Assembly (NCBI GenBank): GCA_963771355.1
Contig: CAVYTA010000002.1
Coordinates: 1-64,000, forward strand
DNA from: an uncultured Candidatus Rokubacteria bacterium
GTDB lineage: Bacteria > Methylomirabilota > Methylomirabilia > Rokubacteriales > CSP1-6
Direction of reading: 5' to 3'
DNA: 64,000 bases
The notes under the pieces were generated by a model. It had not been told where the DNA came from. It ran no database searches and was given only the letters and a program-made list of their open reading frames with translations. This document shows, one piece after another, positions 601-21,238 of the stretch. The translations under genes and the position numbers were made by a program. How positions within the stretch are numbered: the first letter of the stretch is position 1; each line of letters starts with the position of its first letter.

Positions 601-2787
601 CTAGCTGAGCTCCGCGAGGGTCCTCTTCGCTTCCTCTGCACCCGGGAACCCCGAGCTCAGCTTCAGGGCCTGAGCGAGGGCCTGCTTGGCTGCCGCCTTG
701 TCGCCCAGCTTGTGATAGGTCATCCCGAGGTGGTACTGGATCTCGGCGTTGGCCGGCATCTTGGTGGCGCTTTCCTTCAACAAGCTGAGGGCGCGCTGGT
801 AGACCCCGCGCTTGTAGAGGATCCACCCCAGGGTGTCCGAGATGCTGGGCTCGTCCGGGAGCCCTTCCTTGGCCGTCTGGGCTAGCTGAAGCGCCTTCTC
901 CTTGTCTCCACCATGCTCGGAGTAGAGCCAGGCAAGGTTGTTTGCAGCCGGAGCAAAGCGCGGGTCGACCGCCAGCGCCCTTTCGTAGGCTTGCTGGGCC
1001 TTCGCGGTCTCGCCCTTCTGCTCGTAGACCATGCCCGAGACCATGAGCGCCGTCAGGTTCTTGGGGTTGACGCGGAGCGCCTCGTCAAGCCTGGTGAGCG
1101 CTTGATCGTGTTTGCCCGCCGCCGCGTAGAGACCGGCGAGCTTCAAGTATGCGCCGAACATTTGCGGATTGAGCTTCAGGGCCTTCAGGTAGGCCCCCTC
1201 CGCCAGATCGACCTCCTTCCTCGCTGCATGGACCCGTCCGAGCTCCGCATAGAGCCGTGGCGAGTCGGGAACGAGCGCGATTTGCCTCTTCACGCGCTCG
1301 AGCGCCGCATCGGGCTGCTTTTCGGCCAAGGCCATCGTCACGAGCTGGTCCAGCGCATCGACGTAGCCGGGAGCGAGGGCCAGGGACGCCTCGAATTGCT
1401 TCTTGGCCTCGGCCGTCTTCCCTTGAAGGCGGAGCCCCCCGCCGACGAAATAGGGGCCCCGCGGGTCCTTGGGGGCCTGCGTCAGGATCTTGCGGTAGAC
1501 CTCGGTTGCCCTCGCGGGGTCCCCTTTCTTCAGGTACGCCGAGCCCAGCAGGATATAGGCGTCAACCGCCTCCGGGTGTTTTGCGAGCAGCCTTTCCAGT
1601 CCCTCGATGGCCGGCTGGTGCGCTCCCGCCTGGAGGTCCAACTCCGCGAGCCGCAGTGTCGCCGCGACGAAATCCGGGGCAGTGTTGAGGGCCTCTTTGA
1701 AGGCTTGCCTCGCTTGCTGCACCTTTCCGTCTCTGAGGTAGGCCAAACCAAGGGTGTAGTGAGCCTCGGCGAACCAGGGCTCGAGCTTCAGGGCCTGGAG
1801 AAGCTCCTGGATGGCCTCCAGTGTGTGGCCCTCTCGCAATTCGAGCCGACCCTGGTGGTAATGGCCCTCCACGTCCGAGGGGTTCTTGGCGAAAAGGGTC
1901 TTGAGCTCCTTTCGCGCCTCCACGAGGTTCCCCTCTTTCAGGAGAATGGTGATGAGTCCTCGGCGGGCTCGGAGGTTGTCCGGGTTCTTGCCCAGGATCT
2001 CGCCCAGGAGCGCCACGGCCTCCGGCCGCCGCTGCTGAGCGTCGTAGAAGGCGGCCAGCGCCAGCTTGACCTGGGCGGAGGCAGGGTCATCGATCTTGAG
2101 GGCTTCCTTGTAGATCTCCTCGGCTCGAGCGGCCTGTCCCTGCCTGCGGTAGAGGCTCGCCAGGGTCAGGCGATATTCGACCCGAGTGGGGGCCAAACGG
2201 ATAGCTTCCAGCACGTGCTTCTCCGCGGCCTGGTTGTCCCCCTGTGCCCGGAGAAGCTCGGCCAGCGCCGCATGGGCGTTGGCGTCAAGGGGCTGCTCGG
2301 TCACCAGCGCGACCATCTCCGTGATCGCGCGCTTCCGATCTCCCTCGCCGTCGTACACCGCGGTCATGAGGAGCCGCGCCTCCCGGCTCGTGGCATCCTT
2401 CGCCGGCACGGCTTCAATCTGCTCCCGCGCCTTGGCGAAGTCTCGTTTGGCAAGGAAAATACCGGCGAGCTTCAGTCGGGCTTCCGGCTGCGCCGGGTTC
2501 AACTCCAGGCTCTTGCTTAGCGCCGCGAAGGCGAGCGACCCTTCCCCGAGCTTCAAGGCGGCGAGGCCGATCCGGTAGTAGGCCTCGGCGTTGTTGGGGT
2601 CGATGACGAGAAACCTGCGGAACTCGAGAATGGCCTCGCGGTACTTCTCCTTCTCCGCAAAGCTCACCCCGCGTTGCCAGTGCCTGGCCTTCGTCGCCTC
2701 GGGGCTCCGGGAGCAGCCGACGGCGAGACCCACGAACCCCGCCAAGAGGACACACAGCAGAAAATAGGTGCGGGCTCCACGCTTCAT
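601..2787 (-). CDS. TPR-repeat lipoprotein, PEP-CTERM system PrsT-like
   Basis: Signal peptide with lipobox LAVGC; tandem TPRs; C-terminal AANNLAW...DTLGWILY...YHLG motifs; next to exosortase. Confidence 0.85.
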   Translation of the reverse strand: MKRGARTYFLLCVLLAGFVGLAVGCSRSPEATKARHWQRGVSFAEKEKYREAILEFRRFLVIDPNNAEAYYRIGLAALKLGEGSLAFAALSKSLELNPAQPEARLKLAGIFLAKRDFAKAREQIEAVPAKDATSREARLLMTAVYDGEGDRKRAITEMVALVTEQPLDANAHAALAELLRAQGDNQAAEKHVLEAIRLAPTRVEYRLTLASLYRRQGQAARAEEIYKEALKIDDPASAQVKLALAAFYDAQQRRPEAVALLGEILGKNPDNLRARRGLITILLKEGNLVEARKELKTLFAKNPSDVEGHYHQGRLELREGHTLEAIQELLQALKLEPWFAEAHYTLGLAYLRDGKVQQARQAFKEALNTAPDFVAATLRLAELDLQAGAHQPAIEGLERLLAKHPEAVDAYILLGSAYLKKGDPARATEVYRKILTQAPKDPRGPYFVGGGLRLQGKTAEAKKQFEASLALAPGYVDALDQLVTMALAEKQPDAALERVKRQIALVPDSPRLYAELGRVHAARKEVDLAEGAYLKALKLNPQMFGAYLKLAGLYAAAGKHDQALTRLDEALRVNPKNLTALMVSGMVYEQKGETAKAQQAYERALAVDPRFAPAANNLAWLYSEHGGDKEKALQLAQTAKEGLPDEPSISDTLGWILYKRGVYQRALSLLKESATKMPANAEIQYHLGMTYHKLGDKAAAKQALAQALKLSSGFPGAEEAKRTLAELS

Positions 2788-2789
2788 CG

Positions 2790-3655
2790 TCAATTCCCTC
2801 TGATCGGTACCGAATGAGATGCTTCGAGGCGCGGGCTTTCACCACCGCGTCGCAGGATCAACGCCAAAATGACGAGAGACACGAGGGTAAGGGCCCACAC
2901 GCCCTTGGCGATGGAGTTATGGATGAAGCCTTGCGCCGCGCTGGGCCCGATGTAATACACGGCGAGGGCGATTGTGGCAACGCGGACCGCGTTGGCCAGG
3001 ATGGCGATCGGGATCGCCGACGCCACGAGGATCAGCTTCCGCGGCAGACTCCGCTGGCTCAGGTGGGCGAAGGCGATGGTCAGTACCACGAGCGCCGACA
3101 AGAAACGGAGTCCGTTGCAGACCGTGGCCACGGTCAACGTGATGCCGGGGAGCTGGATCAGCACGCCGTCCAGGAAGAACGGGACGTCAAAGAGATCGAG
3201 CGCCGCCCCAGCGGTCCGCGCCGCGAAGAGCTGCAAGTCCTGGGTCACGGCGCTGACCACCGGGTTCGGGAGCGGCAGCATCAAGAGCAGGAATGCCACG
3301 GGGAAGGCCGCAGCCTGCAACGCGCGCGGCCCGAGGATCCAGAGCACCATGCCCGCCAGACACATGACCAGGGATACGCCCTGCAGGAGGAGGCTTTCGA
3401 TCGAGCGCCCGGCGAAGAGGAGTCCCAGCGCCAGCAGGATGACCGCAAGGCCGATCGCTGCCCCGGCGTGACGGCGGCTCGGATCCTTGCTCGGTCGGTC
3501 CAGAGCAAGAACGCGCTAAACGCAGGGACCAAGGGCCCATGCCCCGCATACGGATGCGTCCACCAGGCGTGGGCAAGGTCCCGGAGGGTGGGCGTGTAGA
3601 GGGGCGCCAGGATGAGCCCCCCGACTATGAGCTTGAGAAGAGCTGTTCGGTTCAA
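2790..3655 (-). CDS. Exosortase/archaeosortase family protein (frameshift near 3460)
   Basis: Y-x-GHG-x-LVP N-terminus; VATVCNGLRFL (Cys), ANAVR (Arg), FIHN (His); split over ORFs 3281-3655 and 2790-3365. Confidence 0.85.
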
Positions 3656-4396
3656 GGCCTGAGCCCGCGATCACGCAGGGCAGGCTCGAACACAATGAAC
3701 ATAGCCCGCCCGTTGTCAAGGCGCCAGGCTTTTCGGTGAAGTGACACTTCCATGGCCTCGCCGGCGTTCATCGACTCGGCCTGCCTCTCGCTGCGTTCTC
3801 CTGGGATTTCCTGATCTGCTCCAGTACTGGGTCCTGCGGCATCGCGCACTTGGCCGTCAGATCTGGCGTCGGGCACGCCCCCGGCATGAATTGCTCCGCG
3901 CCTGGCTGCTGCTGCGCGGCGCGCCGGGCGCGCTCAGTCTCCTGCCGGGCCTCGGTCCGACGGGCGGCGTCGGTCTCTTTGGCTTACGCACGCGCTCGGC
4001 CTCCGGCCTCACGCGCGCGCTCGATCTCTTCGGCCTTACGCGCGCGCGCGGCCTCCTGACGCGCCCTGCTCTTCTCCTTCGCCGCCTGGGCGGCTGCCTC
4101 TTGAGCCTGGGCCTCCGCCTGCCGTCGCGTTCCACCTCCGCCGCCCGGCGCTGGTGCTCGCGCTCTGCCGTCTCTTTGGCCTGGCGCCTGAGCTCGTACT
4201 CGCGCTGGGCTTCGTAGCAGGCGAAGTGACGTTCTATGTCGATCCGCTGGGCATGCGACGGCCGCACCGAGTTTGACCCGCTGCCAGTAGCTAAACAGCG
4301 CGTCAGGGAGAACTCGTCGGCTCCGGCAGGGACCACGAGCATGACGGCGGCCAGCCAGGCTCCGAGGAGCGACGTGTACACCCAGCCGCGACTCAT
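3652..4396 (-). CDS. Secreted Ala/Glu/Arg-rich coiled-coil protein (frameshifted)
   Basis: Signal peptide ending PAGA; Cys pair; EAQRE/EAARARKAEE helical repeats across frames; paralog at 14691. Confidence 0.55.
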
Positions 4397-4589
4397 CGCA
4401 CTCCCCCATCGCTTCGCACTACTTGAATAGGTCGTAGGAGGCGGAGATCATCCGGAGCATCCGCGGACACGTTAAGATCGCGGTGGCGGAGGTCGGACAT
4501 CAGGAGCGCGTCCGGATTGGTGGGGCTCGTGTCTGCCGGGCCGGGGTTCGATAGCACCCGTTCGTCAAGCAGCCTCACGGAGTCCTGAA

Positions 4590-4770
4590 GGGCCAGCATC
4601 GCTTACACCATCCTGTTGGTGCACGTCCCTGCGGTTGTCGTCGCAGTCTAATACATCGGGCTCAGCGCGCGCCAAGGATTCGTACACAAATTCATCGCCA
4701 AGACTTGTGTTAGTCGTGATACTCGTCCCTCTCGGCATCGTGACGCTCCTCCTGAGACGTGCTTGGCGAG
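4590..4770 (+). pseudogene. Degenerate exosortase C-terminal remnant
   Basis: Translates VAV*YIGLSARQGFVHKFIAK / LVLVVILVPLGIVTLLLRR versus exosortase LAVYYIGPSAAQGFIHNSIAKGVWALTLVSLVILALILRR. Confidence 0.65.
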
Positions 4771-5002
4771 AGCCCAGCGGCGCGGACAAACCGGTACTGC
4801 ATAATCTATGACGTTTTTTGCATAATTAAGGTAAGCATTTGCATTGGAAGACTGGCTTCCGTGGAATTCCGGAGCCCCGTCGATCGCGGCCGCCCGCGGG
4901 CCACCCCAAGAGACATTCTGGCTGAGGGCTAAGCGGTTCCTCTTTCGGCATTCCGGGGGCTTGTATCATCGGCACTGACTCAGGAGGAGGAGGAGGCTTT
5001 CA

Positions 5003-6742
5003 ATGGAGCGCCCGGCGAAGAGGAGTCCAAGCGCTAGCGGGATCCTAGCAAGGCCGATCGAGTGCACTGGTCCCCGGCAGCATGGAGGAGGCTCTCCAAG
5101 AGCCCTCAGGTGGTTCCTTGCGCTGGCGCTGTTGTCGTCTCTGATCCTGCCTGTCCCCGCGGCGACAGCTCAGACCCTCGATCAATACGGCGGCTATACA
5201 TCCCTGCCCGTGCCGGGTGGCGCGACGGGGCGCTTCCGGGTCGGGAAACTCGGTAGTCGGTGGGTCTTTGTCACGCCCGCGGGCAATGCATTCTGGATGA
5301 CGGGGGTCTTCAACATTGATGTCGATAAGCGATTTGTCGATCTTGCGGCAAAGTACGGCGGGACAAACCCGCAGGCATCGTTTGGCATCCAGGCGACCAA
5401 GCGCCTGACATCGTGGGGCTTCAATTCCGTCGCGGAGTACTCGTCGGCCTATGTGTACCCGTATCGAGCGGGTGTCGTGAAAATGCCCGCGATGATCATG
5501 GCTCGACCGACGTCGGCGGGGCTCGGGAACTCGGGGAATCGCGCGCCTGCAGGCGGCGCCTACAAGGACATGATCGACTCGTTGGGTCCCGTCTATACGA
5601 ATGCGCGGCGCTCATTCCCTGACGTGTTCGACCCCGCGTACGCAACGTATGTCAATGCCTACATGCCGGCTCTTGTGGTGAACGATCCCTTCTGGGGTGG
5701 GCTGGCGAGCTTGCCGTGGTGCATCGGCGTCAGCGTGGACGACGCGGACGATCTCTTTGGATTCGGGCCGGGCCCAGAGGTGCCCTCGGCACGCGTCCAT
5801 CCGCATCCCTCGTGGTATGCCATTGCGGCATCCCCAGGCAAGGCGTCCAGCGCGAAGTGGAAGCAGACGTACACCGACACCAAGGTCTACACGAAGTACG
5901 CTTTGCAGAGATTCCTTCAGGGGCGTTACGCGACTATTGGCGCCCTGAACACGGCGTGGGGGTCAAACTACACGACGTGGGACAGTGCCGGCGGCTGGGG
6001 CGTGGGCACCGGCTGGCTCGATGAAGATGGGCGTCACACCGCCTGGCTGGGCGCGACGAACGCCACCCTGGCGGGAGCCACGCCAGGAGTCACGAAAGAC
6101 CTCGATGATTTCCTCTACGAGATTGCACATCAATACTTCTCCGTCGTGACGGCAGCGGTCCGTACGGCCGCGCCCAACCAGCTCATGTGGGGGCCGGCCT
6201 CGCTCAACGGGTGGGGCGGACTCACGAGGAAACAGATCCTGCGGGCTGCCGGGGGGTCGGTTGATGTGCTGAACGCGATGATTAGCAGTCAGAATGTCGC
6301 GGACAAAACAAAGGCCTACTATGGTGATAAACCGGTTGTGACCTGGGAGGGGTACACGGCCAATCCCGATTCTGGGATGCATTCTCATCCAGACAATCCG
6401 CCCCGTGACAACGTTGCCTATAAGTTTACGGTGGCCGATCAAGCCGCCCGGGCATCGCACTACACGACACGTATGGCTTTTCTTCTGTCGGTAGAGACGG
6501 TTGTGGGGCTCAAGTGGTGGGCGTGGCGGGACTCGTGGGGCGAAAAGCGCAACTGGGGGCTGACGTCCCTCAAGGACAACGCCTACGATGGGATCGAGGC
6601 GCGGATCGGCGTCGGCACCGATCCGTGGGGCTACGCGACCGGCGGGGAAGCGGGGAACTACGGCAATTTCCTGAGCTCGGTCAAGAGCGCAAACGCAGGG
6701 GTGGCCGCGACAATCGGTGGCCCGACCGGTGGGATCCGTTGA
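5003..6742 (+). CDS. Secreted glycoside hydrolase, GH50/GH42 (beta-agarase-like) clan; copy A, intact
   Basis: Signal peptide; DQYGG, ATGRFRV, RLTSWGFNS, FPDVFDP, RYATIGALNTAWG, DKPVVTWE motifs; strong RBS. Confidence 0.7.
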   Translation: MERPAKRSPSASGILARPIECTGPRQHGGGSPRALRWFLALALLSSLILPVPAATAQTLDQYGGYTSLPVPGGATGRFRVGKLGSRWVFVTPAGNAFWMTGVFNIDVDKRFVDLAAKYGGTNPQASFGIQATKRLTSWGFNSVAEYSSAYVYPYRAGVVKMPAMIMARPTSAGLGNSGNRAPAGGAYKDMIDSLGPVYTNARRSFPDVFDPAYATYVNAYMPALVVNDPFWGGLASLPWCIGVSVDDADDLFGFGPGPEVPSARVHPHPSWYAIAASPGKASSAKWKQTYTDTKVYTKYALQRFLQGRYATIGALNTAWGSNYTTWDSAGGWGVGTGWLDEDGRHTAWLGATNATLAGATPGVTKDLDDFLYEIAHQYFSVVTAAVRTAAPNQLMWGPASLNGWGGLTRKQILRAAGGSVDVLNAMISSQNVADKTKAYYGDKPVVTWEGYTANPDSGMHSHPDNPPRDNVAYKFTVADQAARASHYTTRMAFLLSVETVVGLKWWAWRDSWGEKRNWGLTSLKDNAYDGIEARIGVGTDPWGYATGGEAGNYGNFLSSVKSANAGVAATIGGPTGGIR

Positions 6743-6947
6743 CAGCTGTCGGGCGAGGCAGCAAGGCACGGACCACTATTCTTCCCTCCGACATGATCAC
6801 AAGGAGCTCGCCCGCCCGCGGTACGCCGGAGGTTGATCGGCTGGCATCGCCTTGCTCAGACCTTCGAAACAGGGCAGCTCCCTAGGTCCCCCGCAGTCCG
6901 AGCGGGTCAGAGTCGGCCCCGGGCGCCTCCTCGCAGAATTGACCCAC

Positions 6948-6963
6948 TGTCGACCAGATGACA
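6948..6963. promoter_or_regulatory. Putative sigma-54 activator (bEBP) upstream site TGT-N10-ACA
   Basis: TGTCGACCAGATGACA about 85-100 bp upstream of a sigma-54 promoter; present in mirror arm. Confidence 0.35.
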
Positions 6964-7045
6964 CTGTTACGACGATCGAACCATCCGCTCACATGGCTTC
7001 AAGTGGCCTGGATTGTAACTGCTTGGTCTTACAGAAGAAAACTTG

Positions 7046-7061
7046 TGGCACGCCCGTTGCT
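7046..7061 (+). promoter_or_regulatory. Sigma-54 (-24/-12) promoter
   Basis: TGGCAC-GCCCG-TTGCT, exact TGGCAC-N5-TTGCW; IHF-like AT-rich element just upstream. Confidence 0.8.
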
Positions 7062-7096
7062 GCTCTGAAAGGCCACAAAGGCAAAGAGCGAAAGCC

Positions 7097-7186
7097 CCGT
7101 CCCGAAAAGGCAAACCCGCCGCGAGGTGGGGGCGCAAAGCCACGGGTCAGGCATCGGGCCTGACAGCCGGGCTGTCGAAGGAAGGG
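7097..7186 (+). ncRNA. c-di-GMP-I (GEMM) riboswitch, C92U variant
   Basis: GAAAAGGCAAACCCGCC-GCGA-GGTGGGGGCGCAAAGCCACGGGTC...GACAGCCGGGCTGTCGAA; P2 with GNRA loop and P3; lies in the 5' UTR of GH-B. Confidence 0.9.
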
Positions 7187-7221
7187 AACGAGGGTCATCG
7201 CAACGTGGAGGAGGTTCTCCA

Positions 7222-9413
7222 ATGGCCCTCAGGTGGCTCCTTGCGCTACCCTGCTGTCGTCTCTCTTCCTGCCTGTCCCCGCGGCGACGGCTCAGACCCT
7301 CGATCAATACGGCGGCTATGCGTCCCTGCCCGTGCCGGGTGGGGCAACCGGCTCCTTCCGGGTCGGGAAAATCGGCGACCGGTGGGTCTTTGTCACGCCC
7401 GAGGGCAATGCATTCTGGATGACCGGGGTCTACAACATTAATGCCGATACCCGGTTGTCGATCTTGCGGCAAAATACGGCGGGACAAACCCGCAGGCATC
7501 GTTTGGCATCGGGGCGACCAAGCGCCTGACATCGTGGGGCTTCAATTCCGTCGCGGAGTACTCGTCGGCATATGTGAACCCCTATCGACCGGTGTCGTGG
7601 AGATGCCTCGTGATGGTTATGGCCCGATCAAGCGCCAAAGGGAATTCGCTGCACGGCGCCTATGTACAGCATAAGAAACGTAACAAAAGCCCTTATAGAC
7701 GCCGTTCCTCTACCTTTCCTTTAAGAGTCGTAAGTTCCCCGATATCTTTGATCCAGCTTTGCAACTACTGGATGCCTACATGCCGGCCTTGTGGCCATCC
7801 CTACTATGCGCGGGCGGCGACCTCGCCGTGGCGCATCGGCGTTAGCATGGACGACACTGATGACCTCTTCGGCTTTGGGCCCGGCCCAGAGGTGCCCGCG
7901 GCACACCTCCATCCTCATCCCTCATGGTATGCCATCGCGGCTCCTCAGCCACGGCGTCCAGCGCCAAGCAAGCGAGACGTACACCGACCCCAAGGTCTAC
8001 ATAAAGTACGCACTCCGGAATTCTCCAGGGGCGTACGGGACGTTGGCGCCTTGAACACCGCGTGGGGGTCAAACTACACGACGTTTGACAGCGCCGGCGG
8101 GCTGGGGAGCGGGCACGGGCTGGCTCGATGAAGACGGGCGCCAGACAGCCTGGCTGGGCACGACCGACGGCAACTAGCGCGAGCCACGCCAGGCGGTCCG
8201 AAGGGACCTCGATGATTTCCTCTACGAGATTGCCACATCAATACTTCTCGGTCTCGAGCGGCAGCGGTCCGTACGGCCGCGCCCAATCAGCTCATCTGGG
8301 GCCGGCCTCCCATCAACGGGTGGGGCGGGCTCCCGCGGAGACAGATCCTTCAGGCGGCCGGGGAGTACACTCGATGTTCTCAACGCGACGAGCTAGCGGT
8401 GCAGAGTACCGCGGACAACAGTGGCCTACCCTGGCGACAAACCCTGTGTGCTCGGGCGGGGTTTACGGCCAATTCCGATTCTGGCATGTCCCCGTACCCG
8501 ATCGCCGCGGCACGACTCTCGCCTATTATTTCACATGACCGATCAGGGTGCGCGTGGCTCGAATTACGCCTGCACGATATGGCGTTTCTCCTCTCAGGGC
8601 GCCGATCGGTTGTCGGGCATCAAATGGTGGGCAGTGGCAGGACAAGTGGGGCGAGAAGCTCAACTGGGGGCTGACGACCCTCAGGATAATGCCTATGATG
8701 GGGTCGAGGCGCGTGTCGCCGTCGGACCGATCCGTGGGGCTATGCGACTAGGCGGGGAAGACAGGGACTACGGCGATTTCTTGACCTCGGTAATGACGGC
8801 AAACGCTGGGGTGGCCGCGCAATCGGCGCCGGAGGCGGCCGTCCGCCGTCGACCACCGTGTCAATAAGCTCGCCGACGCCGGGAGCACGGTGCAGCAGAC
8901 CGTCACCGTCTCCGCAGCAGCCTCGACCTCTGCCGTTCGCGTCGATCTGGCTTTGGACGGGGCCTTGTAGGCATCTTTAGTGGAACGGTGGCCCAGTATC
9001 CCTGGGATACGACGGCGTCGCCAACAGCACGCACCGGTGGATCGCGAAGGCATATGATGTTTCGGGGCTTCAGTCACGTCCTCTCCCGTGGACGTCATCG
9101 TCAGCAACGCCGGCACCTCGGATACCACGCCGCCTGTGGTGTCCATCACGCAGCCGACGAATGGAAGCTCCGTCGTCCGAAAGACGAAGACCACGATCCA
9201 GGCGACCGCCTCGGATAATGTCGGTGTAACGCGCGTGGAGTTTTACGTCAACGGCAGCCTGAAGTGTTCGGTTACCGTAGCCCCCTATGCCTGCCAGTGG
9301 CAGGTGCCTGCGGCCAACCCGGCCACGGAAAAGTGTATAGTCTTCAGGCGAAGGCCTACGATGCACAGGGTAACGTGGGCTCCTCCAGCATTGTGACGGT
9401 GCAGTCACAATAG
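7222..9413 (+). pseudogene. Glycoside hydrolase copy B with two C-terminal Ig-like domains; heavily frameshifted (possibly sequencing error)
   Basis: GGAGGAGG RBS then ATG; fragments match GH-A in several frames; C-terminal DTTPPVVSITQPTNG...TRVEFYVNG Ig-like repeat. Confidence 0.7.
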
Positions 9414-9525
9414 GAGTCCTCGGTGCCTCCGGACGCCTGGGGATGTGGTGGTCTATGGCCTCACTGTTCGTGCCCCCGCTGGGGTGCCCACGAGTTGTGG
9501 TGACGTTGGCAGTGGCTCCACTGCC

Positions 9526-9583
9526 ATCGTCCGGATTGTGCTCAAGACAGGCAGCTCCCTGTCTTGAGCACAATCCGGACGAT
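9526..9583. repeat. Perfect 26-bp hairpin at the palindrome centre
   Basis: ATCGTCCGGATTGTGCTCAAGACAGG-cagctc-CCTGTCTTGAGCACAATCCGGACGAT. Confidence 0.95.
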
Positions 9584-9696
9584 CGCAGGCGAACCCGCTG
9601 CCAACGTCGCCACAGCTCGATGGGCACCCCAGCGGGCACACGAGCGGTGAGGCCATGTCCCACCACATCCCCAGGGTCCGGAGGCACCGAGGATTC

Positions 9697-11897
9697 CTAT
9701 TGGGCCTCCACCGTCACAATACTGGAGGAACCCACGTTACCTCGTGCATCGTAGGCCTTTGCCTGGAGACTATACGCTTTCCCGCTGGCCGGGTTGGCCG
9801 CAGGCACCTGCCATTGGCAGGCATAGGGGGCTACGGTAGCCGAACACTTCAGGACGCCGTTGAGGTAAAACTCCACGCGCGTTACGCCGACATTATCCGA
9901 GGCGGTCGCCTGGATCGTGGCCTTCGTCTTGCGGACGACGGAGCTTCCATTCGTCGGCTGCGTAATGGACACCACAGGCGGCGTGGTATCCGCGCTGCCG
10001 GCGTTGCTGACGGTGACGTCCACGGGAGAGGACGTGACTGAAGTCCCGGAACCGTCATAGGCCTTCGCGACCCACCGGTGCGTGCCGTTCTGCGATTTCG
10101 TCGTATCCCAGGGATACTTGGACCACCGTCCCACCAAAAATGCCTACAAGGCTCCCGTTCAAAGTCAAATCGACACGAACGGCGGAGCTCGAGGCTGCTG
10201 CGGAGACGGTGACGGTCTGCTGCACCGTGCTCCCGGGCGTTGAGCTGATTGACACTGAGGCCGATGGCGGGTGCCGCCCCGGCGCCGATTGCCGCGGCCA
10301 CCCCAGCGTTCGCGGTCATTACCGAGCTCAGGAAATTGCCGTAGTCCCTGTCCTCCCCGCCCACCGCGAATCCAGACGAATTGGTGCCGGCGGCGATCCG
10401 CGCCTCGATCCCATCATAGGCATTGTCCTTGAGGACGTCAGCCCCCAGTTGCGCTTTTCGCCACGAGTCCTGCCATGCCCACCATTTGAGCCCGACAACC
10501 GTCGGCACTGAGAGGAGAAACGCCATGCGTGATGGATAATACGAAGCCCGCGCAGCCTGATTGGTCACTGTAAAATCATAGGCCACATTGTTGCTTGACG
10601 GACTATCAGGGTACGCGTATATCCCAGAATCGGGATTGGCCGTATACCCTTCCCAGGTCACAACCGGTTTGTCACCATAGTAGGCCTTTGTTTTGTCCGC
10701 GGTATTCTGACTGCTAATCATCGCGTTGAGCACATCAACCGACTCCCCGGCAGCTTGCAGGATCTGTTTCCTCGTGAGCCCGCCCCACCCGTTTAGCGAG
10801 GCCGGCCCCCACATGAGCTGATTGGGCGCGGCCGTACGGACCGCTGCCGTCACGACGGAGAAGTATTGATGTGCAATCTCGTAGAGGAAATCATCGAGGT
10901 CTTTCGTGACCCCTGGCGTGGCTCCCGCCAGGGTGGCGTTCGTCGTGCCCAGCCAGGCGGTATGGCGCCCATCTTCATCGAGCCAGCCGGTGCCCACACC
11001 CCAGCCGCCGGCACTGTCCCACGTCGTGTAGTTTGACCCCCACGCCGTGTTCAGGGCGCCAATCGTCGCGTAACGCCCCTGAAGGAATTCCCGCAATGCG
11101 TACTTTGTATAGACCTTGGTGTCGGTGTACGTCTGCCCCCACTTGACGCTGGACGCCGTGGCTGAGGATGCCGCAATGGCATACCACGAGGGATGCGGAT
11201 GGAGGCGTGCCGAGGGCACCTCTGGGCCCGGCCCGAATCCAAAGAGATCGTCCGCGTCGTCCACGCTGACGCCGATGCACCACGGCGAGTCGCCAGCCCA
11301 CCCCAGAAGGGATCGTTCACCACAAGAGCCGGCATGTAGGCGTCCACGTAGTTTGCATACGCTGGATCAAATACATCGGGGAACGAACGACTGATAAAGG
11401 AAAGGTAGAGGGAACGGCGTCTATAAGGTCTTTGTACGTTTCTCCTGCCAGTACATAACCGCCGGTGTTGCCAAATCCCTTTGACGTGGGTCGGGCCATA
11501 ATCATCGCGGGCATCTTCACGACACCGGCTCATAGGGGTACACATAGGCCGACGAGTACTCCGCGACGGAATTAAAGCCCCACGATGTCAGGCGCTTGGT
11601 CGCCTCGATGCCAAACGATGCCTGCGGGTTTGTCCCGCCGTATTTTGCCGCAAGATCGACAAACCGGGTATCGGCATTAATGTTGAAGACCCCGGTCATC
11701 CAGAATGCATTGCCCGCGGGCGTGACAAAGACCCACCGGTCGCCGAGTTTCCCGACCCGGAAGTACCCGGTTGCCCCACCCGGCACGGGCAGGGACGCAT
11801 AGCCGCCGTATTGATCGAGGGTCTGAGCCGTCGCCGCGGGGACAGGCAGGAAGAGAGACGACAGCAGGGTGAGCGCAAGGAGCCACCTGAGAGCCAT
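9697..11897 (-). CDS. Glycoside hydrolase copy B' with Ig-like domains (several frameshifts)
   Basis: ORFs 11517-11993, 11317-11520, 11051-11545, 9882-11264, 10055-10255 and 9697-10137 tile one GH50-like plus Big-domain protein. Confidence 0.7.
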
Positions 11898-11932
11898 TGG
11901 AGAACCTCCTCCACGTTGCGATGACCCTCGTT

Positions 11933-12022
11933 CCCTTCCTTCGACAGCCCGGCTGTCAGGCCCGATGCCTGACCCGTGGCTTTGCGCCCCCACCTCGCGG
12001 CGGGTTTGCCTTTTCGGGACGG
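11933..12022 (-). ncRNA. c-di-GMP-I (GEMM) riboswitch, second copy, C92U variant
   Basis: Reverse complement of 7097-7186. Confidence 0.9.
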
Positions 12023-12057
12023 GGCTTTCGCTCTTTGCCTCTGTGGCCTTTCAGAGC

Positions 12058-12073
12058 AGCAACGGGCGTGCCA
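12058..12073 (-). promoter_or_regulatory. Sigma-54 promoter (mirror copy)
   Basis: Reverse complement TGGCACGCCCGTTGCT. Confidence 0.8.
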
Positions 12074-12376
12074 CAAGTTTTCTTCTGTAAGACCAAGCGG
12101 TTACAATCCAGGCCACTTGAAGCCATGTGAGCGGATGGTTCGATCGTCGTAACAGTGTCATCTGGTCGACAGTGGGTCAATTCTGCGAGGAGGCGCCCGG
12201 GGCCGACTCTGACCCGCTCGGACTGCGGGGGACCTAGGGAGCTGCCCTGTTTCGAAGGTCTGAGCAAGGCGATGCCAGCCGATCAACCTCCGGCGTACCG
12301 CGGGCGGGCGAGCTCCTTGTGATCATGTCGGAGGGCAGAATAGTGGTCCGTGCCTTGCTGCCTCGCCCGACAGCTG

Positions 12377-14110
12377 TCAACGGATCCCACCGGTCGGGCC
12401 GCCGATTGCCGCGGCCACCCCTGCGTTTGCGCTCTTGACCGAGCTCAGGAAATTCCCGTAGTTCCGCTCTTCCCCGCCGGTCTTGTAGCCCCAGGGATCG
12501 GTGCCGATGGCGATCCGCGCCTCGACCCCATCGTAGGCATTGTCCTTCAGAGACGTCAGCCCCCAGTTGCGCTTCTCGCCCCACGAGTCCCGCCATGCCC
12601 ACCACTTGAGCCCGACAACCGTCTGTACCGACAGAAGAAAGGCCATACGTGTCGTGTAGTACGATGCCCGGGCGGCTTGATCGGCCACCGTAAACTTGAT
12701 AGGCCACATTGTCACTGAGCGGCTATTCAGGGTAGAGCGTAAATCCCAGAATCGAGATTGGCCGTGTACCCCTCCCAGGTCACAACGGGTTTATCACCGT
12801 AGTAGGCCTTCGTTTTGTCCGCGACATTCTGACTGCTAATCATCGCGTTCAGCACATCAACCGACTCGCCGGCGGCTTGCAGAATCTGTTTCCTCGTGAG
12901 CCCGCCCCACCCGTTGAGCGAGGCCGGGCCCCACATGAGCTGATGGCGCGGTCGCCCGGACCGCGGCCGCCACGATGGAGAAGTATTGATGCGCAATCTC
13001 GTAGAGGAAATCATCGAGGTCTTTCGTGACCCCTGGCGTGGCGCCCGCCAGGGTGGCGTCTCGCGCCAAGCCAGGCCGTGTGGCGCCCATCTTCATCGAG
13101 CCAGCCGGTGCCCACCCCCCAGCCGCCGGCACTGCCCCACGTCGTATAGTTTGACCCCCACGCCGTGTTCAGGGCGCCAATAGTCGCGTAACGCCCCTGA
13201 AGGAATCCCTGCAAGGCGTACTTCGTGTAGACCTTGGTGTCGGTGTACGTCTGCTTCCACTTCGCGCTGGACGCCTTCGCTGGGAATGCCGCCATGGCAA
13301 ATCACGAAGGATGCGGATGGAGGCGTGCCGAAGGCACCTCTGGGCCCGGCCCGAATCCAAAGAATCGTCCGCGTCGTCCACGCTGACGCCGATGCACCAC
13401 GGCAAGGTCGCCAGCCCACCCCAGAAGGGATCGCACCACAAGGGCCGGCATGTAGGCATTGACATACGTTGCGTACGCGGGATCAAATACGTCAGGGAAT
13501 GAACGACTCGCATAAGTATAGAGGGACCCAAGGAGTCGATCAGGTCCTTGAACGCGCCGCCTGCAGGCACATGACCCCCCGAGTTCCCGAGCTCCTCCTA
13601 GGTCGGGCGCGCCAAAATCATCGCGGGCATTTTCACGACACCCGCTCGATACGGGTACACATAGGCCGACGAGAACTCCGCGACGGAATTGAAGCCCCAC
13701 GATCTCAGGCGCTTGGTCGCCTGGATGCCAAACGATGCCTGCGGGTTTGTCCCGCCGTACTTCGCCGCAATATCGACAAACCGGGTATCGACATCAATGT
13801 TGAAGACCCCGGTCATCCAGAATGCATTGCCCGCGGGCGTGACAAATACCGACCGACTACCGAGTTTCCCGACCCGGAAGCGCCCCGTCGCGCCACCCGG
13901 CACGGGCAGGGATGTATAGCCGCCGTATTGATCGAGGGTCTGAGCTGTCGCCGCGGGGACAGGCAGGATCAGAGACGACAACAGCGCCAGCGCAAGGAAC
14001 CACCTGAGGGCTCTTGGAGAGCCTCCTCCATGCTGCCGGGGACCAGTGCACTCGATCGGCCTTGCTAGGATCCCGCTAGCGCTTGGACTCCTCTTCGCCG
14101 GGCGCTCCAT
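12377..14110 (-). pseudogene. Glycoside hydrolase copy A' (frameshifted)
   Basis: Same N- and C-termini as 5003-6742; broken into about 6 ORFs; also carries genuine substitutions (YKTGGEERNY versus YATGGEAGNY). Confidence 0.7.
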
Positions 14111-14334
14111 TGAAAGCCTCCTCCTCCTCCTGAGTCAGTGCCGATGATACAAGCCCCCGGAATGCCGAAAGAGGAACCGCTTAGCCCTCAGCCAGAATGT
14201 CTCTTGGGGTGGCCCGCGGGCGGCCGCGATCGACGGGGCTCCGGAATTCCACGGAAGCCAGTCTTCCAATGCAAGCGCTTACCGTAACTGTGCAAGGAAC
14301 GTCACAGATCATGCAACGCCGCTTCGTGCTCGCC

Positions 14335-14500
14335 AGGGCGCCTCACAGGAGCGTCAGATGCCGCGAGGGATGAGTACACGACTCACACCTCCTTGGCGAT
14401 GAATTTGTGTACGAATCCTCGACCCGCGCTGGGTCCGATGATTAGACTGCGACGAACCGCGGTGACGTGCACCAACAGGATGGTATAAGCGATGCTGGCC
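14335..14500 (-). pseudogene. Degenerate exosortase C-terminal remnant (mirror)
   Basis: Translates IGPSAGRGFVHKFIAKEV* versus IGPSAAQGFIHDSIAKGVW. Confidence 0.6.
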
Positions 14501-14690
14501 CTTCAGGACTCCATGAGGCCGCATGACGAACGGGGGCTATTGAACCCGGCCCTGCCGGAACGGCGTGACAATCGGCGGCGGCGCTCCTGAGGACCGTCCT
14601 CCTCCACCGCGATCTGAAGGTGTCCGCGGATGCCCCGGATGATCCCACCTCCTACGACCTATTAAGTAGTGGAAGCGAAGGGGGAGAGAG

Positions 14691-15345
14691 ATGAGTCGCG
14701 GCTCGATGACATGGTCGCTCCTCGGGGCCTGGCTGGCCGCCGTCGTGACCGTGGTCCCTGCCGGAGCCGACGAGTTCTCCCTGACGCGCTGTTTAGCCAC
14801 CGGCAGCGGGTCAAACTCGGTGCGGCCGTCGCATGCCCAGGGGATCGACATAGAACGTCACTTAGCCTGCTACGAAGCCCAGCGCGAGTACGAGCTCAGG
14901 CGCCAGGCCAAAGAGACGGTAGAGCGCGAGCACCAGCGCCGCGGCGGCGGAGGTGGAAGCGCGACGGCAGGCGGAGGCCCAGGCGAAGGAGACAGCCGAG
15001 CAGGCGGCCAAGGAGAAGAGCAGGGCGCGTCAGGAGGCCGCGCGCGCGCGTAAGGCCGAAGAGGTCGAGCGCGCGCGGAGGCCCGTGAGGCCAAAGAGAT
15101 CGACGCCGCCCGTCGGATCGAGGCCCAGCAGGAGACTGAGCGCGCCCGGCGTGCCGCGCACAGGAGCGCGCGGAGCAATTCATGCCCCGAGCGTGCGCGA
15201 CGCCAGATCTGATCGCCAAGTGCGCGATGTCACAGGACCCAGTACTGGAGCAGATCAGGAAATCCCAGGAGAACGCAGCGAGAGGCAGGCCGAGTCGATG
15301 AACGCCGGCGAGGCCATGGAAGTGTCACTTCGCCGAAAAGCCTGA
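14691..15345 (+). CDS. Secreted coiled-coil protein (frameshifted), paralog of 3652-4396
   Basis: ORFs 14691-15053 and 14953-15345; signal peptide. Confidence 0.55.
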
Positions 15346-15411
15346 CGCCTTGACAACGGGCGGGTATGTTCATTGTGTTCGAGCCTGCCTGCGTGATCGC
15401 GGGCTCAGGCC

Positions 15412-16284
15412 TTGAACCAAACAACTCTTCTCAAGCTCATAGTCTCGGGACTCATCCTGGCGCCCCTCTACGCGCCCGTCGCCCGAGACCTTGCCCAGGC
15501 CTGGTGGACGCATCAGTACGCGGGGCATGGGCCCTTGGTCCCTGCGTTTAGCGCGTTCGTGCTCTGGACCGATCGAGCCCGGATCCGAGCCGCCGCCACG
15601 CCGGGGCACGTGATCGGCCTTGCGGTCATCCTGCTGGCGCTGGGACTCCTCTTCGCCGGGCGCTCGACCGCAAGCCTCCTCCTGCAGGGTGTGTCCCTCG
15701 TCATGTGTCTGGCGGGTATGGTGCTCTGGATCCTCGGGCCGCGAACGTTGCAGGCCGCGGCCTTCCCCGTCGCATTCCTTCTATTCATGCTGCCCCTCCC
15801 GAGCCCGGTGGTCAGCGCCGTGACCGAGGACTTGCAGCTCTTCGCGGCGTGGATCGCTGGGGCGGCGCTCGATGCTTTTGACGTCCCCTTCTTTCTGGAC
15901 GGCGTACAGATCCAGCTTCCCGGCATCACGCTGGCCGTGGCCACGGTCTGCAACGGGCTCCGCTTCCTGTTGGCGCTCCTGGTGGTGACCATCGCCTTCG
16001 CCCACCTGAGCCAGCGGAGTCTGCCGCGCAAGCTGATCCTGATAGCCTCGGCGCTCCCGATCGCCATCCTGGCCAACGCGGTCCGCGTTGCCACAATTGC
16101 CCTCGCTGCGTACTATATCGGGCCCAGCGCGGCGCAAGGCTTCATCCATGACTCCATCGCCAAGGGTGTGTGGGCCATTACCCTCGTGCCGCTCGTCATT
16201 TTGGCGTTCATCCTGCGACGCGGTGGTGAAAGCCCACGCCTCGAAGCATCTCATTCGGTACCACTCGGAGGGGCGTCACGATGA
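15412..16284 (+). CDS. Exosortase family protein (intact, no EpsI domain)
   Basis: Multi-TM; AVATVCNGLRFL, ANAVR, FIHD triad motifs. Confidence 0.9.
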   Translation: MNQTTLLKLIVSGLILAPLYAPVARDLAQAWWTHQYAGHGPLVPAFSAFVLWTDRARIRAAATPGHVIGLAVILLALGLLFAGRSTASLLLQGVSLVMCLAGMVLWILGPRTLQAAAFPVAFLLFMLPLPSPVVSAVTEDLQLFAAWIAGAALDAFDVPFFLDGVQIQLPGITLAVATVCNGLRFLLALLVVTIAFAHLSQRSLPRKLILIASALPIAILANAVRVATIALAAYYIGPSAAQGFIHDSIAKGVWAITLVPLVILAFILRRGGESPRLEASHSVPLGGASR

Positions 16285-18459
16285 AGCGTGGGTCCTCCGC
16301 CTATTTTCTGCTTTTACTCGTTGGGCTCGCGTTCCTCAGCCTCAGCTGCTCCCGGAGCCCCGAGGCCACGAAGGCCAGGCACTGGCAGCGCGGACTGAGT
16401 TTCGCGGAGAAGGAAAAGACCGCGAAGCCATCCTCGAATTCCGTAGATTCCTCGTCCTCGACCCCAACCACGCCGAGGCCTACTACCGGATCGGGCTCGC
16501 CGCCTTCAAGCTCGGGGAGGGCTCGCTCGCGCAAACAGCCCTGACCAAGAGCCTGGAGCTGAACCCGGAGCAACCAGATGCCAGGTTGAAGCTCGCCACC
16601 GTGCTCATCGCCAGGCGGGATTGGGCCAAGGCCCGCGACCAGATTCAGACCGTCCAGGCGAAGGATGCAACAAATCATGACGCCCGGCTTCTCATGGCTG
16701 CCGTCTACGAAGGGGAAGGAGACCGAAAGCGCGCAATCGCAGAGCTGGCCCCCATCGTGGAGAACAGGCCTGATGATGCTCGAAGTCATGCTGCTCTGGG
16801 CGAGCTTCTGCGGGCACAGGAGGATAATCAGGGCGCGGAGAAGCATATGCTCGAGGCCATTCGCCTCGCCCCCACCAAGATCGAGTATCGCCTGGCCCTG
16901 GCGAACCACTATCGCAGGCTCGGACAAGCAGCTCGAGCCGAGGCAACCTACAAGGAAACTCTCAAGATCGATGATCCTGCCTCCGCCCCGGTCAAGCTGG
17001 CGCTGGCGGACTTCTACGACAGTCAGCAGCGCTGGGCGGAGGCCGAGGCGCTTTTACTCGAGATGCTCGCCAAGAACCCGGACAACGTCCGGGCCCGTCA
17101 CGGACTGATCAGCGTGCTACTGAAAGAAGGGAAACTGTCCGATGCGAGAAGGGAGCTGAAGACGCTTCTTGCCAAGAATCCCTCGGATGTGGAGGGGCAC
17201 TATTACCTGGGGCGACTCGAGCTGCGTGAGAATCACCTCCAAGAGGCCATCCAGGAGTTCCTCCAAGCGGTGAAGCTCGAGCCGCGGCTGGCCCGAGCCC
17301 ACCACAGCCTTGGGCTGGCGTACCTCCGGAGTGGAAATCTTCCCCAGGCGAGACAGGCCTTCAGGGCAGCTCTCAACGCTGCCCCAGACTCCATCGAGTC
17401 AGCGTTGCAGCTAGCCGAGTCGGACCTCCGGCAGGCGCTACGCAGCCAGCGATCGAGGGCTTGGAAAGGCTAATTGCAAAGCGACCCGATACAGTCCACG
17501 CGTATGTGCTATTGGGCTCAGCGTACCTGGCGAAAAGAGAGGCCGTCAAGGCAACCGAGATTTATCGCAAGCTGTTGAAGCTGGCGCCCAAGGACCCGCA
17601 GGGTCCCTACCTTGTCGGGGTTGGCCTCCGCGCTCAAGGGAAAACGCCTGAGGCCAAGAAGCACTTCGAGACGGCTCTCGATCTTGCGCCCGCTCATGTG
17701 CCTGCGCTCGAGCAGCTAGTCTCCATGGCGCTCGCCGAGAAGCAACCCGACGCCGCTCTCGAGCGCGTCAAGAGGCAGCTCGCACTTGCTCCGAAGTCCC
17801 CGCAACTTTATTCCGAATTGGGGCGGGTCCATGAAGCAAGAAAGGAAACCGGCCTCGCCGAGACCGCTTATTTGAAGGCCCTCGAGCTGGAGCCACGGAT
17901 GTTCAGCGCATTCATGCGGTTGGCAAATCTTTACTCAAGTTCAGGGCAGTACGATCAAGGAATCGCGAAGCTGAATGGCGCGCTCAAACTGGACCCGAAG
18001 AATGTGGTCGCGCTCACGGTTCTGGGCCTTCTGTACCAGCAGAAGGGTGAAATGCAGAACGCACAACGGGCCTACGAACAGGCGCTGGCGATCAATCCCC
18101 GGCTCGCCCCCGCGGCGAACAACCTTGCCTGGATCTACTCCGAGTACGGGGGCGACAAGGAGAAGGCACTTCAGCTCGCTCAGACGGCCAGGGAGGCGCT
18201 CCCAGAGGACCCCGGCATCTCGGACACCCTCGGGTGGATCCTCTACAAGCGAGGCGTCTACCAACGCGCCTTGAGCTTGTTGCAGGAGAGCGCGGGCAAG
18301 ATGCCCGCGAACGCCGAGGTGCAGTACCACCTGGGGATGACGCACTTCAAGCTGGGCAACAAGGCAGCGGCGAAACAAGCACTCGCCGAGGCCCTGAAAC
18401 TGAGCCCGACATTCCAGGGAGCGGATGAGGCCAAGACAATCCTGGCCAAGATCGACTAG
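16281..18459 (+). CDS. PrsT-like TPR lipoprotein (frameshifts near 16418 and 17435)
   Basis: Lipobox LSLSC; collinear with 601-2787 but clearly diverged. Confidence 0.8.
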
Positions 18460-19510: not shown

Positions 19511-19622
19511 ACGAAGACGCAGGCCGCGCTCAAGTCATGCTGAGGCGGGCAGCAAACGCCAGCGTGCCACGGCCAACGGCACCAAACGGACCGGCGCACG
19601 TGGCCTTGCCCCTTATCGGACG

Positions 19623-21238
19623 TCAGCGCTGTTGGCGCGGAGACTCCTTCAGGAGCCAGTCGATGATCGCGGAGGGATCCTGGGTCTCACGCTCCGGACG
19701 GGCCTCTTGACGGGAGGCAGCACCGCTCTCCGGCGCAGGCCTGACCGGGACACGGGACGTCGCTTCTGCGCGCTCCGCGGAGCCGGCGGTGGGGTCCTGA
19801 CCCTCTCTGACGGTGGCGGGGGCGTGCCCCGGACACGAGGCGTTCCCTGTGTGCCCTCCGGCGTCGAGGGTAGCGCGGTCCTGCTCGCCGGTGACGCCGG
19901 CACGGGCGGTGTGGCCCGGGGCATTACCGGGGTCCCCTCCCGCGCCAAGGACGGCGTGCTTGTGACGGCCGGTGGCGTCGGAGGAATCGGTTCGGTGCGC
20001 GGGACCGGCGGCGGGACCGGCGGGCTTATGACGACTTCCGCCGGTCGCCCGACCGCCGCCGGCTCGGGGACTCCCGCCGCTGGGACGCGCGGGGACTGAG
20101 CAGCCGGAGTGGCATGAATCACCGGCGCCACCGGCGGCGGGTCCGTCGCGCGGTACCGGGTGACCCAGGCGCCGAGCGCGATCACCGCTACGACCAGGGC
20201 ACCTATGCCCACCGTCCGCCACCGCGCCCGCGGCCACACGGCGCGCACTGGGCCCTCGACCGCGGGGATTGGGCGATCCGCCATTGGGGGATCCGCCACG
20301 GGGCGCTCCGTCGCCCGCTTGAGCTCCACCCACAGCGCGTTGACCACGGCACCCATGTCATGTGCTCGTGGCTCCGGCGACTTGACCAGGGCCTGCATCA
20401 CGAGCTCTCGGACTGCCGCGGGCACCTCGGGACCGAGCGTCCGCTCGGGGTGCGGGTCGGAGCCTTCGCTCTGGGGCCGCACCGCGCCGGTGAGCATCTG
20501 CATCAGGAGGCGGCCGAAAGCCTGGATATCCGCCTGCTCGGTCAAGCCTCCAGCCTTGAGACCCGCCCCTCCGAGGCGCGCGACCTCGAATCCCGTGAGC
20601 TTGACGGTGTCCTCCGCGCCGATCAGCACGTGCTCGGCGTCGAGGGCGCCGTGGATGAACACGAGATTATGGGCGGCCTGGAGGCCGTCGGCGATCTCGA
20701 AGGCCAGGCGCAGTGCGCGCTCGACGGGGAGCGCTCCCTCCTGGCCGATCACATCAGCCAGGCTGCGCCCGTCGAGAGGCTCCAGAACCAGGAAGTCCCG
20801 GCCGTCCGCCGTGCGGTCGCAGTCGTGCACGATGGCCACGTTGGGGCGGATCCGGGCGACGGCGCGCGTGACCGACAGCTCGGCCCGGAGGCGAGAGACG
20901 ATCTCGTCATCCAGCTCAATGCCGGCTGGCAGGAGCTTGAGGGTCACCTCGGCGCCCGTCTCCCCGTCATGCGCGATGTACAGATTGCCCGATGGCCCCG
21001 CGGCAAGCTGCCGCGACACTTGATACCGCGCCTTGATCGCGCGGCCGATCCAGGGATCCTGGGTGGCGTCGGCGCGGACAGAGGATCCCGGATCGGCGTC
21101 CAGGGTCGCGACCGGCTTCGCTTCACCGTCCTTTTCGCCGACCTCAAGGGCTCGATGGAGCTGCTCGTCGACCGCGATCCCGAGGAGGCGCGCAAGCTCC
21201 TTGACCCTGTCCTCGAGCGAAGGATTGGGCTCCATCAT
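19623..21238 (-). CDS. Membrane Ser/Thr pseudokinase with Pro-rich tail (frameshift near 19710)
   Basis: Hanks-kinase fold but IHGALDAEHV and TGFE replace HRDLKPEN and DFG; TM helix; C-terminal DPSAIIDWLL. Confidence 0.75.

Follow-up and report, generated by a model that had tools for sequence, protein, structure and literature searches.

In the Vc2 aptamer, the type example of the canonical c-di-GMP-I (GEMM-I) riboswitch family (Rfam RF01051), G20 is described as reading one guanine of the ligand via its Hoogsteen face, and C92 as forming a Watson-Crick pair with the other (PMC6140456, PMC5888326). C92 is among the positions that are >95% conserved in the Rfam seed (PMC3764141), and G20 and C92 have been described as less conserved than A47 (PMC9049102). 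In the cGAMP-sensing GEMM-Ib RNAs, G20 is replaced by A (PMC6140456, PMC5888326). A change from C to U at position 92 is known from the laboratory: three crystal structures of Vc2 C92U, namely 3MUR, 3UD3 and 3UD4, are listed in PMC10671752. In V. cholerae, C92U decreased riboswitch-dependent RNA 30-fold; this RNA level was partly restored by over-expression of a diguanylate cyclase, unlike that of the G20U/C92U double mutant, which has lost more affinity than the single one. The C92U riboswitch still responds to c-di-GMP in vivo, albeit more weakly (bioRxiv 10.1101/617340).

Here, we analyzed a natural RNA with U at this position, located in a window of 64,000 nucleotides (positions 1 to 64,000 of contig CAVYTA010000002.1, assembly GCA_963771355.1) from an uncultured Candidatus Rokubacteria bacterium. 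Smith et al., in an abstract of 2010, are said to have chosen G20A and C92U for study because natural variants at the two positions that read the ligand bases are most often of these types, and reportedly found that such variants form alternative pairs with the ligand and keep a biologically relevant affinity. The structures 3UD3 and 3UD4 reportedly contain C92U together with adenine-containing linear dinucleotides. Rfam also holds two related families, RF03167 (c-di-GMP-I-GGC) and RF03168 (c-di-GMP-I-UAU), and we take the name 'UAU' to give the bases at positions 20/47/92, in which case RF03168 would be a variant family bearing U92.

The aptamer and its ligand-binding pocket

The aptamer, including an extended P1, occupies positions 7096..7186 on the + strand, and a mirror aptamer of identical sequence occupies positions 11933..12023 on the – strand. 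Both were delimited from Rfam matches, a covariance model of our own (R1) and direct reading, supplemented for the left copy by the minimum free energy (MFE) fold. The complete GEMM-I aptamer itself covers 7099-7180 (+), and its copy 11939-12020 (–). The Rfam search (cmscan) placed a full-length aptamer of clan CL00126 at 7100-7180 (+) and 11939-12019 (–), with identical aligned rows, and these window copies were the only two GEMM-I matches in the 5.5-Mb genome. The RNA scored 68.4 bits against RF01051 (gathering score 35, model positions 1-87), 66.1 bits against RF03167 (gathering score 59, model positions 1-80) and 70.3 bits against RF03168 (gathering score 65.9), the last being the top score among the three clan models, and it scored 89.4 bits on R1. 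The proposal of a preliminary description, made from the letters alone, that a c-di-GMP-I riboswitch lies in 7097..7186 was thus borne out by Rfam models above their gathering scores. Since each of the three clan models exceeded its gathering score on one and the same RNA, the cmscan label is uninformative. The label left after clan competition was that of RF03167, and it was given although the window aptamer has neither the consensus G47 nor the consensus C92 of that model.

The MFE fold of positions 7090-7260 yielded P1, P2 with a GCGA loop, and P3. This loop is of the GNRA type, as is characteristic of P2 in RF01051; the P1-P2-P3 three-way junction is present, and the Rfam alignment bears no marks of non-standard pairs, every modelled pair being standard. 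The window RNA shares with Vc2 and RF01051 the three-helix junction, the GNRA loop on P2, G20 and A47, as well as the 5' leader position and the link to secreted or surface functions. In J1/2, it lacks one base relative to the majority of related aptamers, and the shorter junction also occurs in many of them.

The three pocket bases were located in the Rfam alignment and by direct reading. Position 20 is G at 7109, the last unpaired base ahead of P2; position 47 is A at 7136, the first base past P2, where the GGC model has G; and position 92 is T (U in the RNA) at 7175, the second of the unpaired junction bases that lead up to the P1 3' strand, where the model consensus is C. In the mirror copy, the complements of the same bases were read directly at 12010 (G20), 11983 (A47) and 11944 (U92). 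We further compared position 92 among the matches found in 60 related genomes, using a register alignment of the 68 matches listed, including that of the window and leaving out one that was cut by a contig end. In this column, C was found in 66/66 complete aptamers and T in the window alone. As the flanking letters are the same in the window and in its relatives, the alignment at position 92 is unambiguous, and in view of the >95% conservation of C92 in the seed and its presence in 66/66 aptamers of the nearest 60 genomes, the change to U is not trivial. The preliminary description had read U at the C92 position (7175) with G20 retained, and the same base in the mirror copy (11944). The Rfam alignment, the 66-aptamer register and direct reading agree with the first statement, and direct reading with the second; alignment to an Rfam model, which had been suggested as a check for C at position 92, placed U, not C, in the consensus-C column. 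We found 13 public sequencing runs (shares of at most 0.10, none of them RNA). The four runs examined gave no row covering 7175 or 11944 among the rows listed, and yielded short soil and rhizosphere contigs of relatives together with other GEMM-I copies.

By its bases, the pocket is G-A-U, and thus belongs to neither the GGC nor the UAU variant. The RNA scores above the gathering score over the full RF01051 model and has G20 and A47; it departs from that family in having U, not C, at position 92. Compared with RF03167, which has the consensus GCGAAg and C at 92, the window reads GCAAAG, like canonical GEMM-I, with A instead of G at the equivalent of position 47 and U at 92. Going by the name of RF03168, A47 and U92 are shared with this family, but the combination of U20 with U92 is absent, because the base at 7109 is G. 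The GEMM-Ib 3'3'-cGAMP riboswitches of Geobacter have the same fold and likewise have one pocket base changed; however, they carry A20/C92 (PMC6140456; 18/20 aptamers in Geobacter hydrogenophilus), whereas the window carries G20/U92, with G and not A at 7109. The pocket composition of the window, G20/A47/U92, is the same as that of engineered Vc2 C92U, although the latter is a point mutant of a gammaproteobacterial aptamer and the former is a natural sequence with another P2/P3 background. The novelty implied by the preliminary description was accordingly overstated, since the C92U structures 3MUR, 3UD3 and 3UD4 had been solved (PMC10671752).

These results establish the window RNA as a genuine, structurally intact GEMM-I aptamer in which U92 is the one pocket deviation. 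Because natural U92 exceptions exist (35 elsewhere, and 2/163 in the phylum, as described below), we treat it as a pocket variant inside the GEMM-I structural family, whose C92 consensus is not invariant in nature.

Occurrence of U92 in other genomes

Species-representative genomes were scanned for a pattern that opens with the conserved J2/3-P3 start and, after a gap, resumes at the P3 end with R-T-CGAAG behind it, which gave 69 matches. When scored with the covariance model R1, for whose construction 35 aptamers had been used, 35 matches beyond the window proved to be G20/A47/U92 aptamers, 34 of them at ≥43.8 bits and one weakly at 18.5 bits; judging by record titles, the confirmed aptamers are spread over many phyla. 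The remaining pattern matches, which had no R1 match, are probably due to chance. In an alignment of 37 distinct rows, including the window sequence and one C92 aptamer, which was fitted to the model and hence favours pairing, 95.2% of the cells were standard-paired and changes on both sides were observed in 13/23 pairs. The covariation score of this alignment was 0.446, compared with 0.142 for shuffled alignments, and was reached in 0/500 shuffles. The pairing and the covariation imply that the carriers of U92 are well-kept RNAs, not wrecks.

We also counted the U and C forms in 250 other genomes of the phylum with one common sequence pattern. The U form gave 2 matches (genomes G142 and G204) and the C form 161 matches in 102 genomes, so that U accounts for approximately 1.2%. 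The survey of U92 frequency in relatives that had been proposed beforehand thus returned 0/66 in the 60 related genomes and 2/163 in the phylum. A 21-nt pattern with Y at position 92 matched 19 metagenome loci, of which 16 had C and 3 had T, two of the T loci being nearly identical. A U92 aptamer (L153:426-506) and a C92 aptamer (L159:1207-1287), both from metagenomes, are identical at 78/81 positions, and each lies directly upstream of a homologue of gene A, which is described below (39-40% amino acid identity). This pair is also an instance of a conserved link between GEMM-I and the uncharacterised secreted-protein family of gene A. In a Gemmatimonadota subfamily, 151 genomes contained 1 U and 2 C, one of the latter from an unpublished genome (G287).

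U92 is rare yet recurrent; in several lineages the site flips from C to U or back between close relatives, and it forms no clade signature. Such flipping argues for affinity tuning or near-neutral drift over a new ligand class. Our literature search retrieved no account of natural G20/U92 aptamers as a class; primary variant studies, which lie outside its coverage, may hold one. U92 is therefore a rare natural variant that is found in many other bacteria and known as a laboratory mutant, and is in this sense ordinary.

The palindrome and the downstream genes

Both aptamers lie in an imperfect palindrome of 18 kb at the start of the contig (624..18436, axis near 9554), whose arms (624-9551 and 9558-18436) share 86.8% identity; their alignment contains 1006 mismatches and 151 gap openings. 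Each arm contains a gene for a PrsT-like TPR protein, an exosortase gene, gene A and a riboswitch-gene B unit. Decay differs between the arms: on the left, intact copies of the TPR gene and gene A accompany a truncated exosortase gene and a gene B with many breaks, whereas on the right, the exosortase gene is whole (290 aa) and gene B' largely keeps one frame, but gene A' and the TPR gene are split. The PrsT-like TPR protein (601-2793, – strand) matched TIGR02917 with 336 bits (cut-off 312), and the exosortase (15412-16284, + strand) was closest to the XrtW/XrtA models, below their cut-offs.

Gene A (5003..6742, + strand) is intact and encodes a secreted protein of 579 aa. It matched no Pfam or NCBIfam family, and its 246 homologues, many of which have added Ig-like domains, include none with a functional name. 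Its language-model features were closest to agarase/GH42-like glycoside hydrolase clusters (score 0.96), a predicted likeness that we regard as a lead only. Gene B (7223..9410, + strand), the paralogue of gene A behind the flagged aptamer, is frameshifted many times as assembled, including 24 nt past its ATG. The frameshifts were seen in three-frame translation; the tblastn matches of gene B are in pieces across frames, 5 stops are passed when it is read through, and 9 GC3 phase switches were counted in its region (7.5-10 kb), compared with a background of 2.5; where the arms differ in 7574-8867, no codon position is favoured. Gene B' (9700..11896, – strand), behind the mirror aptamer, keeps its signal peptide (MALRWLLALTLLSSLFLPVPAATAQ...) intact and follows a single frame for the most part, with approximately 3-4 frame breaks as assembled; its read-through passes 3 TGA and 1 TAG, and it has a long single-frame match to gene A (558 aa at 73%). 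The convergent B genes end approximately 290 nt apart around the palindrome axis.

At 0/29 of the GEMM-I loci of relatives was a homologue of gene A found within 1.5 kb, and 0/7 same-genus genomes had a GEMM-I match or a gene A homologue, which indicates that the locus is accessory in that sample. Judging by gene A, the exosortase/PEP-CTERM-type locus is absent from these 7 genomes.

The mismatches between the arms were distributed over codon positions 3/1/2 as 285/127/85 in the TPR gene and as 62/24/23 in gene A, and this periodicity means that the two arms have genuinely diverged and that their differences are not noise in the reads. GC3 phase switches numbered 7-9 per 2.5 kb in 5/8 palindrome bins, compared with 2.5 ± 1.5 on the rest of the contig, and of the 150 indel blocks between the arms, 136 were of 1 nt and 4 were multiples of three. 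We rejected a fold-back artefact of noisy long reads as the whole story, given that the substitutions are codon-periodic, the indels are not homopolymer-enriched and the contig extends 623 nt beyond the left arm. The single-base indels are either real or assembly errors, and the palindrome is either an inverted duplication or a mis-assembly. A third, partial paralogous segment was observed elsewhere in the genome: positions 3732-4843 and 19621-21121 are 84-89% identical to G000:C6:2744864-2748179, approximately 7 kb from the end of contig 6, and one of its genes is related to the Ser/Thr-kinase-like gene at 19649-21238.

The tract around the aptamer (6750-7500) has only 1-5 mismatches per 250 nt, and is far more alike between the arms than the remaining palindrome. 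The arms differ 11 times in this tract (9 substitutions and 2 one-base indels), the differences nearest to the aptamer being at 7078 and 7227. The near-identity of about 6720-7500 suggests recent homogenisation between the arms or gene conversion, and the two U92 copies consequently count as one event with a single recent common origin. The mirror copy had previously been cited as an argument against random error, provided that the arms are independent. This argument holds in so far as the arms were separately assembled and differ at 11 places, but the near-identical tract means that the shared U has one recent origin.

The leader and a possible switching mechanism

The leader between the aptamer and the start codon (7187..7225, + strand) contains an SD-like GGAGGAGG at 7208-7215, a UUCUCC anti-SD-like stretch and the ATG at 7223. 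A terminator scan detected no intrinsic terminator on the + strand between the aptamer and ATG 7223, and a promoter scan detected no sigma-70-like promoter in 6700-7400. In the predicted folds, both the SD-like GGAGGAGG and the AUG are paired, with or without P1. As no terminator was found and the ribosome-binding site (RBS) and start codon lie in a hairpin, the riboswitch probably acts on translation. In the alignment, the leaders of relatives have a conserved GGUCUUCC element with two possible, alternative pairing partners, namely the SD sequence and the purine-rich 3' strand of P1; by inspection, the window reads GGUUCUCC at the place aligned to this element.

In a possible mechanism, P1 stabilised by the ligand would free the anti-SD stretch and thereby turn translation off. 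By analogy with the leaders of relatives, we would give a translational off-switch upon ligand binding about even odds. No clean switching helix was found in silico, and the RBS hairpin was unchanged when the 5' strand of P1 was blocked; since blocking P1 does not release this hairpin, the switching direction stays a guess. As the gene behind the flagged left copy looks dead, any live regulation would run via the right copy, and given that both downstream genes contain frame breaks as assembled, the RNA may be under no selection.

Second messengers available in the genome

We searched the genome for enzymes that could supply c-di-GMP or 3'3'-cGAMP. Six GGDEF Pfam matches were obtained, five of which are full domains, the sixth being partial and degenerate. 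All five full domains carry GG[DE]EF and an Asp at the GHxxG-D position, which we take to be the position that sets GGDEF specificity. Ser or Thr at this site marks the cGAMP-making Hypr GGDEFs. The search for Hypr-type genes that the preliminary description had called for gave a negative answer, with 0/5 full domains in the genome being of the Ser/Thr type, and no SMODS-family cyclase was found in this genome, which is 99.8% complete. As a control, the same script detected one Ser-type among 16 domains in Geobacter hydrogenophilus. With Asp-type GGDEF domains and no SMODS cyclase, c-di-GMP is the available ligand, and a cGAMP reading needs an unrecognised synthase.

The 20 GEMM-I-type aptamers of G. 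hydrogenophilus (genome G252, L164-L183) comprised 18 of the cGAMP type, A20/A47/C92, as well as 2 G20/U92 and 0 G20/C92. The two G20/U92 aptamers lie approximately 2.9 kb apart, in a genome with one Ser-type GGDEF. In an uncultured Geobacter, two G20/U92 aptamers (L132 and L133) were found, which are also about 2.9 kb apart.

Interpretation

We estimate with a probability of roughly 0.68 that the window RNA is a c-di-GMP sensor of lowered affinity and not a cGAMP sensor. The aptamer, its three pocket bases, how rare and how recurrent U92 is, the neighbouring genes and the lack of recognisable cGAMP synthases were observed, whereas the ligand, the affinity and the direction of switching are inferred. 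U92 would read a guanine of c-di-GMP via a G-U wobble or a similar alternative pair, and the affinity, being below that of a C92 aptamer, would shift switching to higher messenger levels. The riboswitch lies in the leader of a gene for a secreted, probably polysaccharide-degrading protein, within an exosortase/PEP-CTERM locus. A detuned c-di-GMP affinity, one of the two outcomes considered in the preliminary description, agrees with the behaviour reported for Vc2 C92U (bioRxiv 10.1101/617340).

An unlikely, though still serious, explanation is that the riboswitch-gene B unit is a decaying remnant, eroding in a duplicated accessory region, in which C92U was the first damaging change in an unused RNA. 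Gene B is heavily frameshifted and B' has approximately 3-4 breaks; on this contig, the frame disruption seen as GC3 phase switches is confined to the palindrome, and the arm differences in 7574-8867 are without codon-position bias. Moreover, gene A homologues and GEMM-I were not found in the 7 same-genus genomes, so that the locus is dispensable in this sample of the genus, and the window reads GGUCAUCGC where the leaders of relatives carry a conserved GGUCUUCCGC element. However, the aptamer has no defect besides U92, its modelled pairs being standard and its scores high, and many well-formed aptamers elsewhere carry this substitution as well; B' also retains a signal peptide and the 558-aa single-frame match, and assembly errors in a repeat could account for its few breaks. 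In another explanation, a base-call or assembly artefact, the true base would be C and the T would have arisen by systematic error where a repeat at the contig end was poorly resolved. The element does lie within 19 kb of the contig start, and the arms of the odd palindrome around it differ by many single-base indels. We nevertheless think this improbable to a much greater degree: both arms carry the U92 base although their consensus sequences are distinct (11 differences in 6750-7500), no part of the palindrome is cleaner than the tract around the aptamer, the codon-periodic substitutions (285/127/85) point to real divergence, and the same variant occurs in other assemblies.

A change in specificity, in which G20 reads guanine and U92 forms a Watson-Crick pair with adenine, would make the RNA either bispecific or a sensor preferring 3'3'-cGAMP in the register opposite to that of GEMM-Ib. 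Such pairing would be chemically reasonable if the Vc2 C92U structures 3UD3 and 3UD4 contain adenine-containing dinucleotides, as is reported of them, and the 18 A20/C92 and 2 G20/U92 aptamers of G. hydrogenophilus, which has no G20/C92 aptamer and one Ser-type GGDEF, as well as the G20/U92 pair (L132 and L133) of the uncultured Geobacter, are in keeping with it. For the window, we hold it to be very improbable, a shade more so than a base-calling error, since the genome has 0/5 Ser/Thr-type GGDEF domains and no SMODS match, and U92 occurs in 2/163 phylum matches and is polymorphic between near-identical orthologues, unlike a maintained class; a G-U wobble, in addition, allows c-di-GMP to bind too. 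The preference for 3',3'-cGAMP that the preliminary description had raised thus found no support in the five GGDEF domains, the SMODS search or the scattered C/U polymorphism at this site. The broader idea that natural G20/U92 aptamers, that of the window included, are an unrecognised mirror solution for 3'3'-cGAMP or for both messengers, in which G20 might read guanine and U92 might pair with adenine, seems to us at least as improbable. If true here, it also requires an unrecognised source of cGAMP, and its best hint is the Geobacter genome, not the window.

On its own, the window RNA matters little: it is one more natural case of a pocket variant that is already known, as an engineered equivalent, from crystal structures and in vivo tests. 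The survey quantifies this variant: it makes up ~1% of the aptamers in the phylum, is present in at least 35 aptamers across species representatives, and is structurally maintained. The locus, in turn, links GEMM-I control to secreted, agarase-like proteins that form a widespread, uncharacterised family and are here encoded in an exosortase locus, and this link suggests that c-di-GMP may control the turnover of matrix polysaccharides in uncultured soil bacteria.
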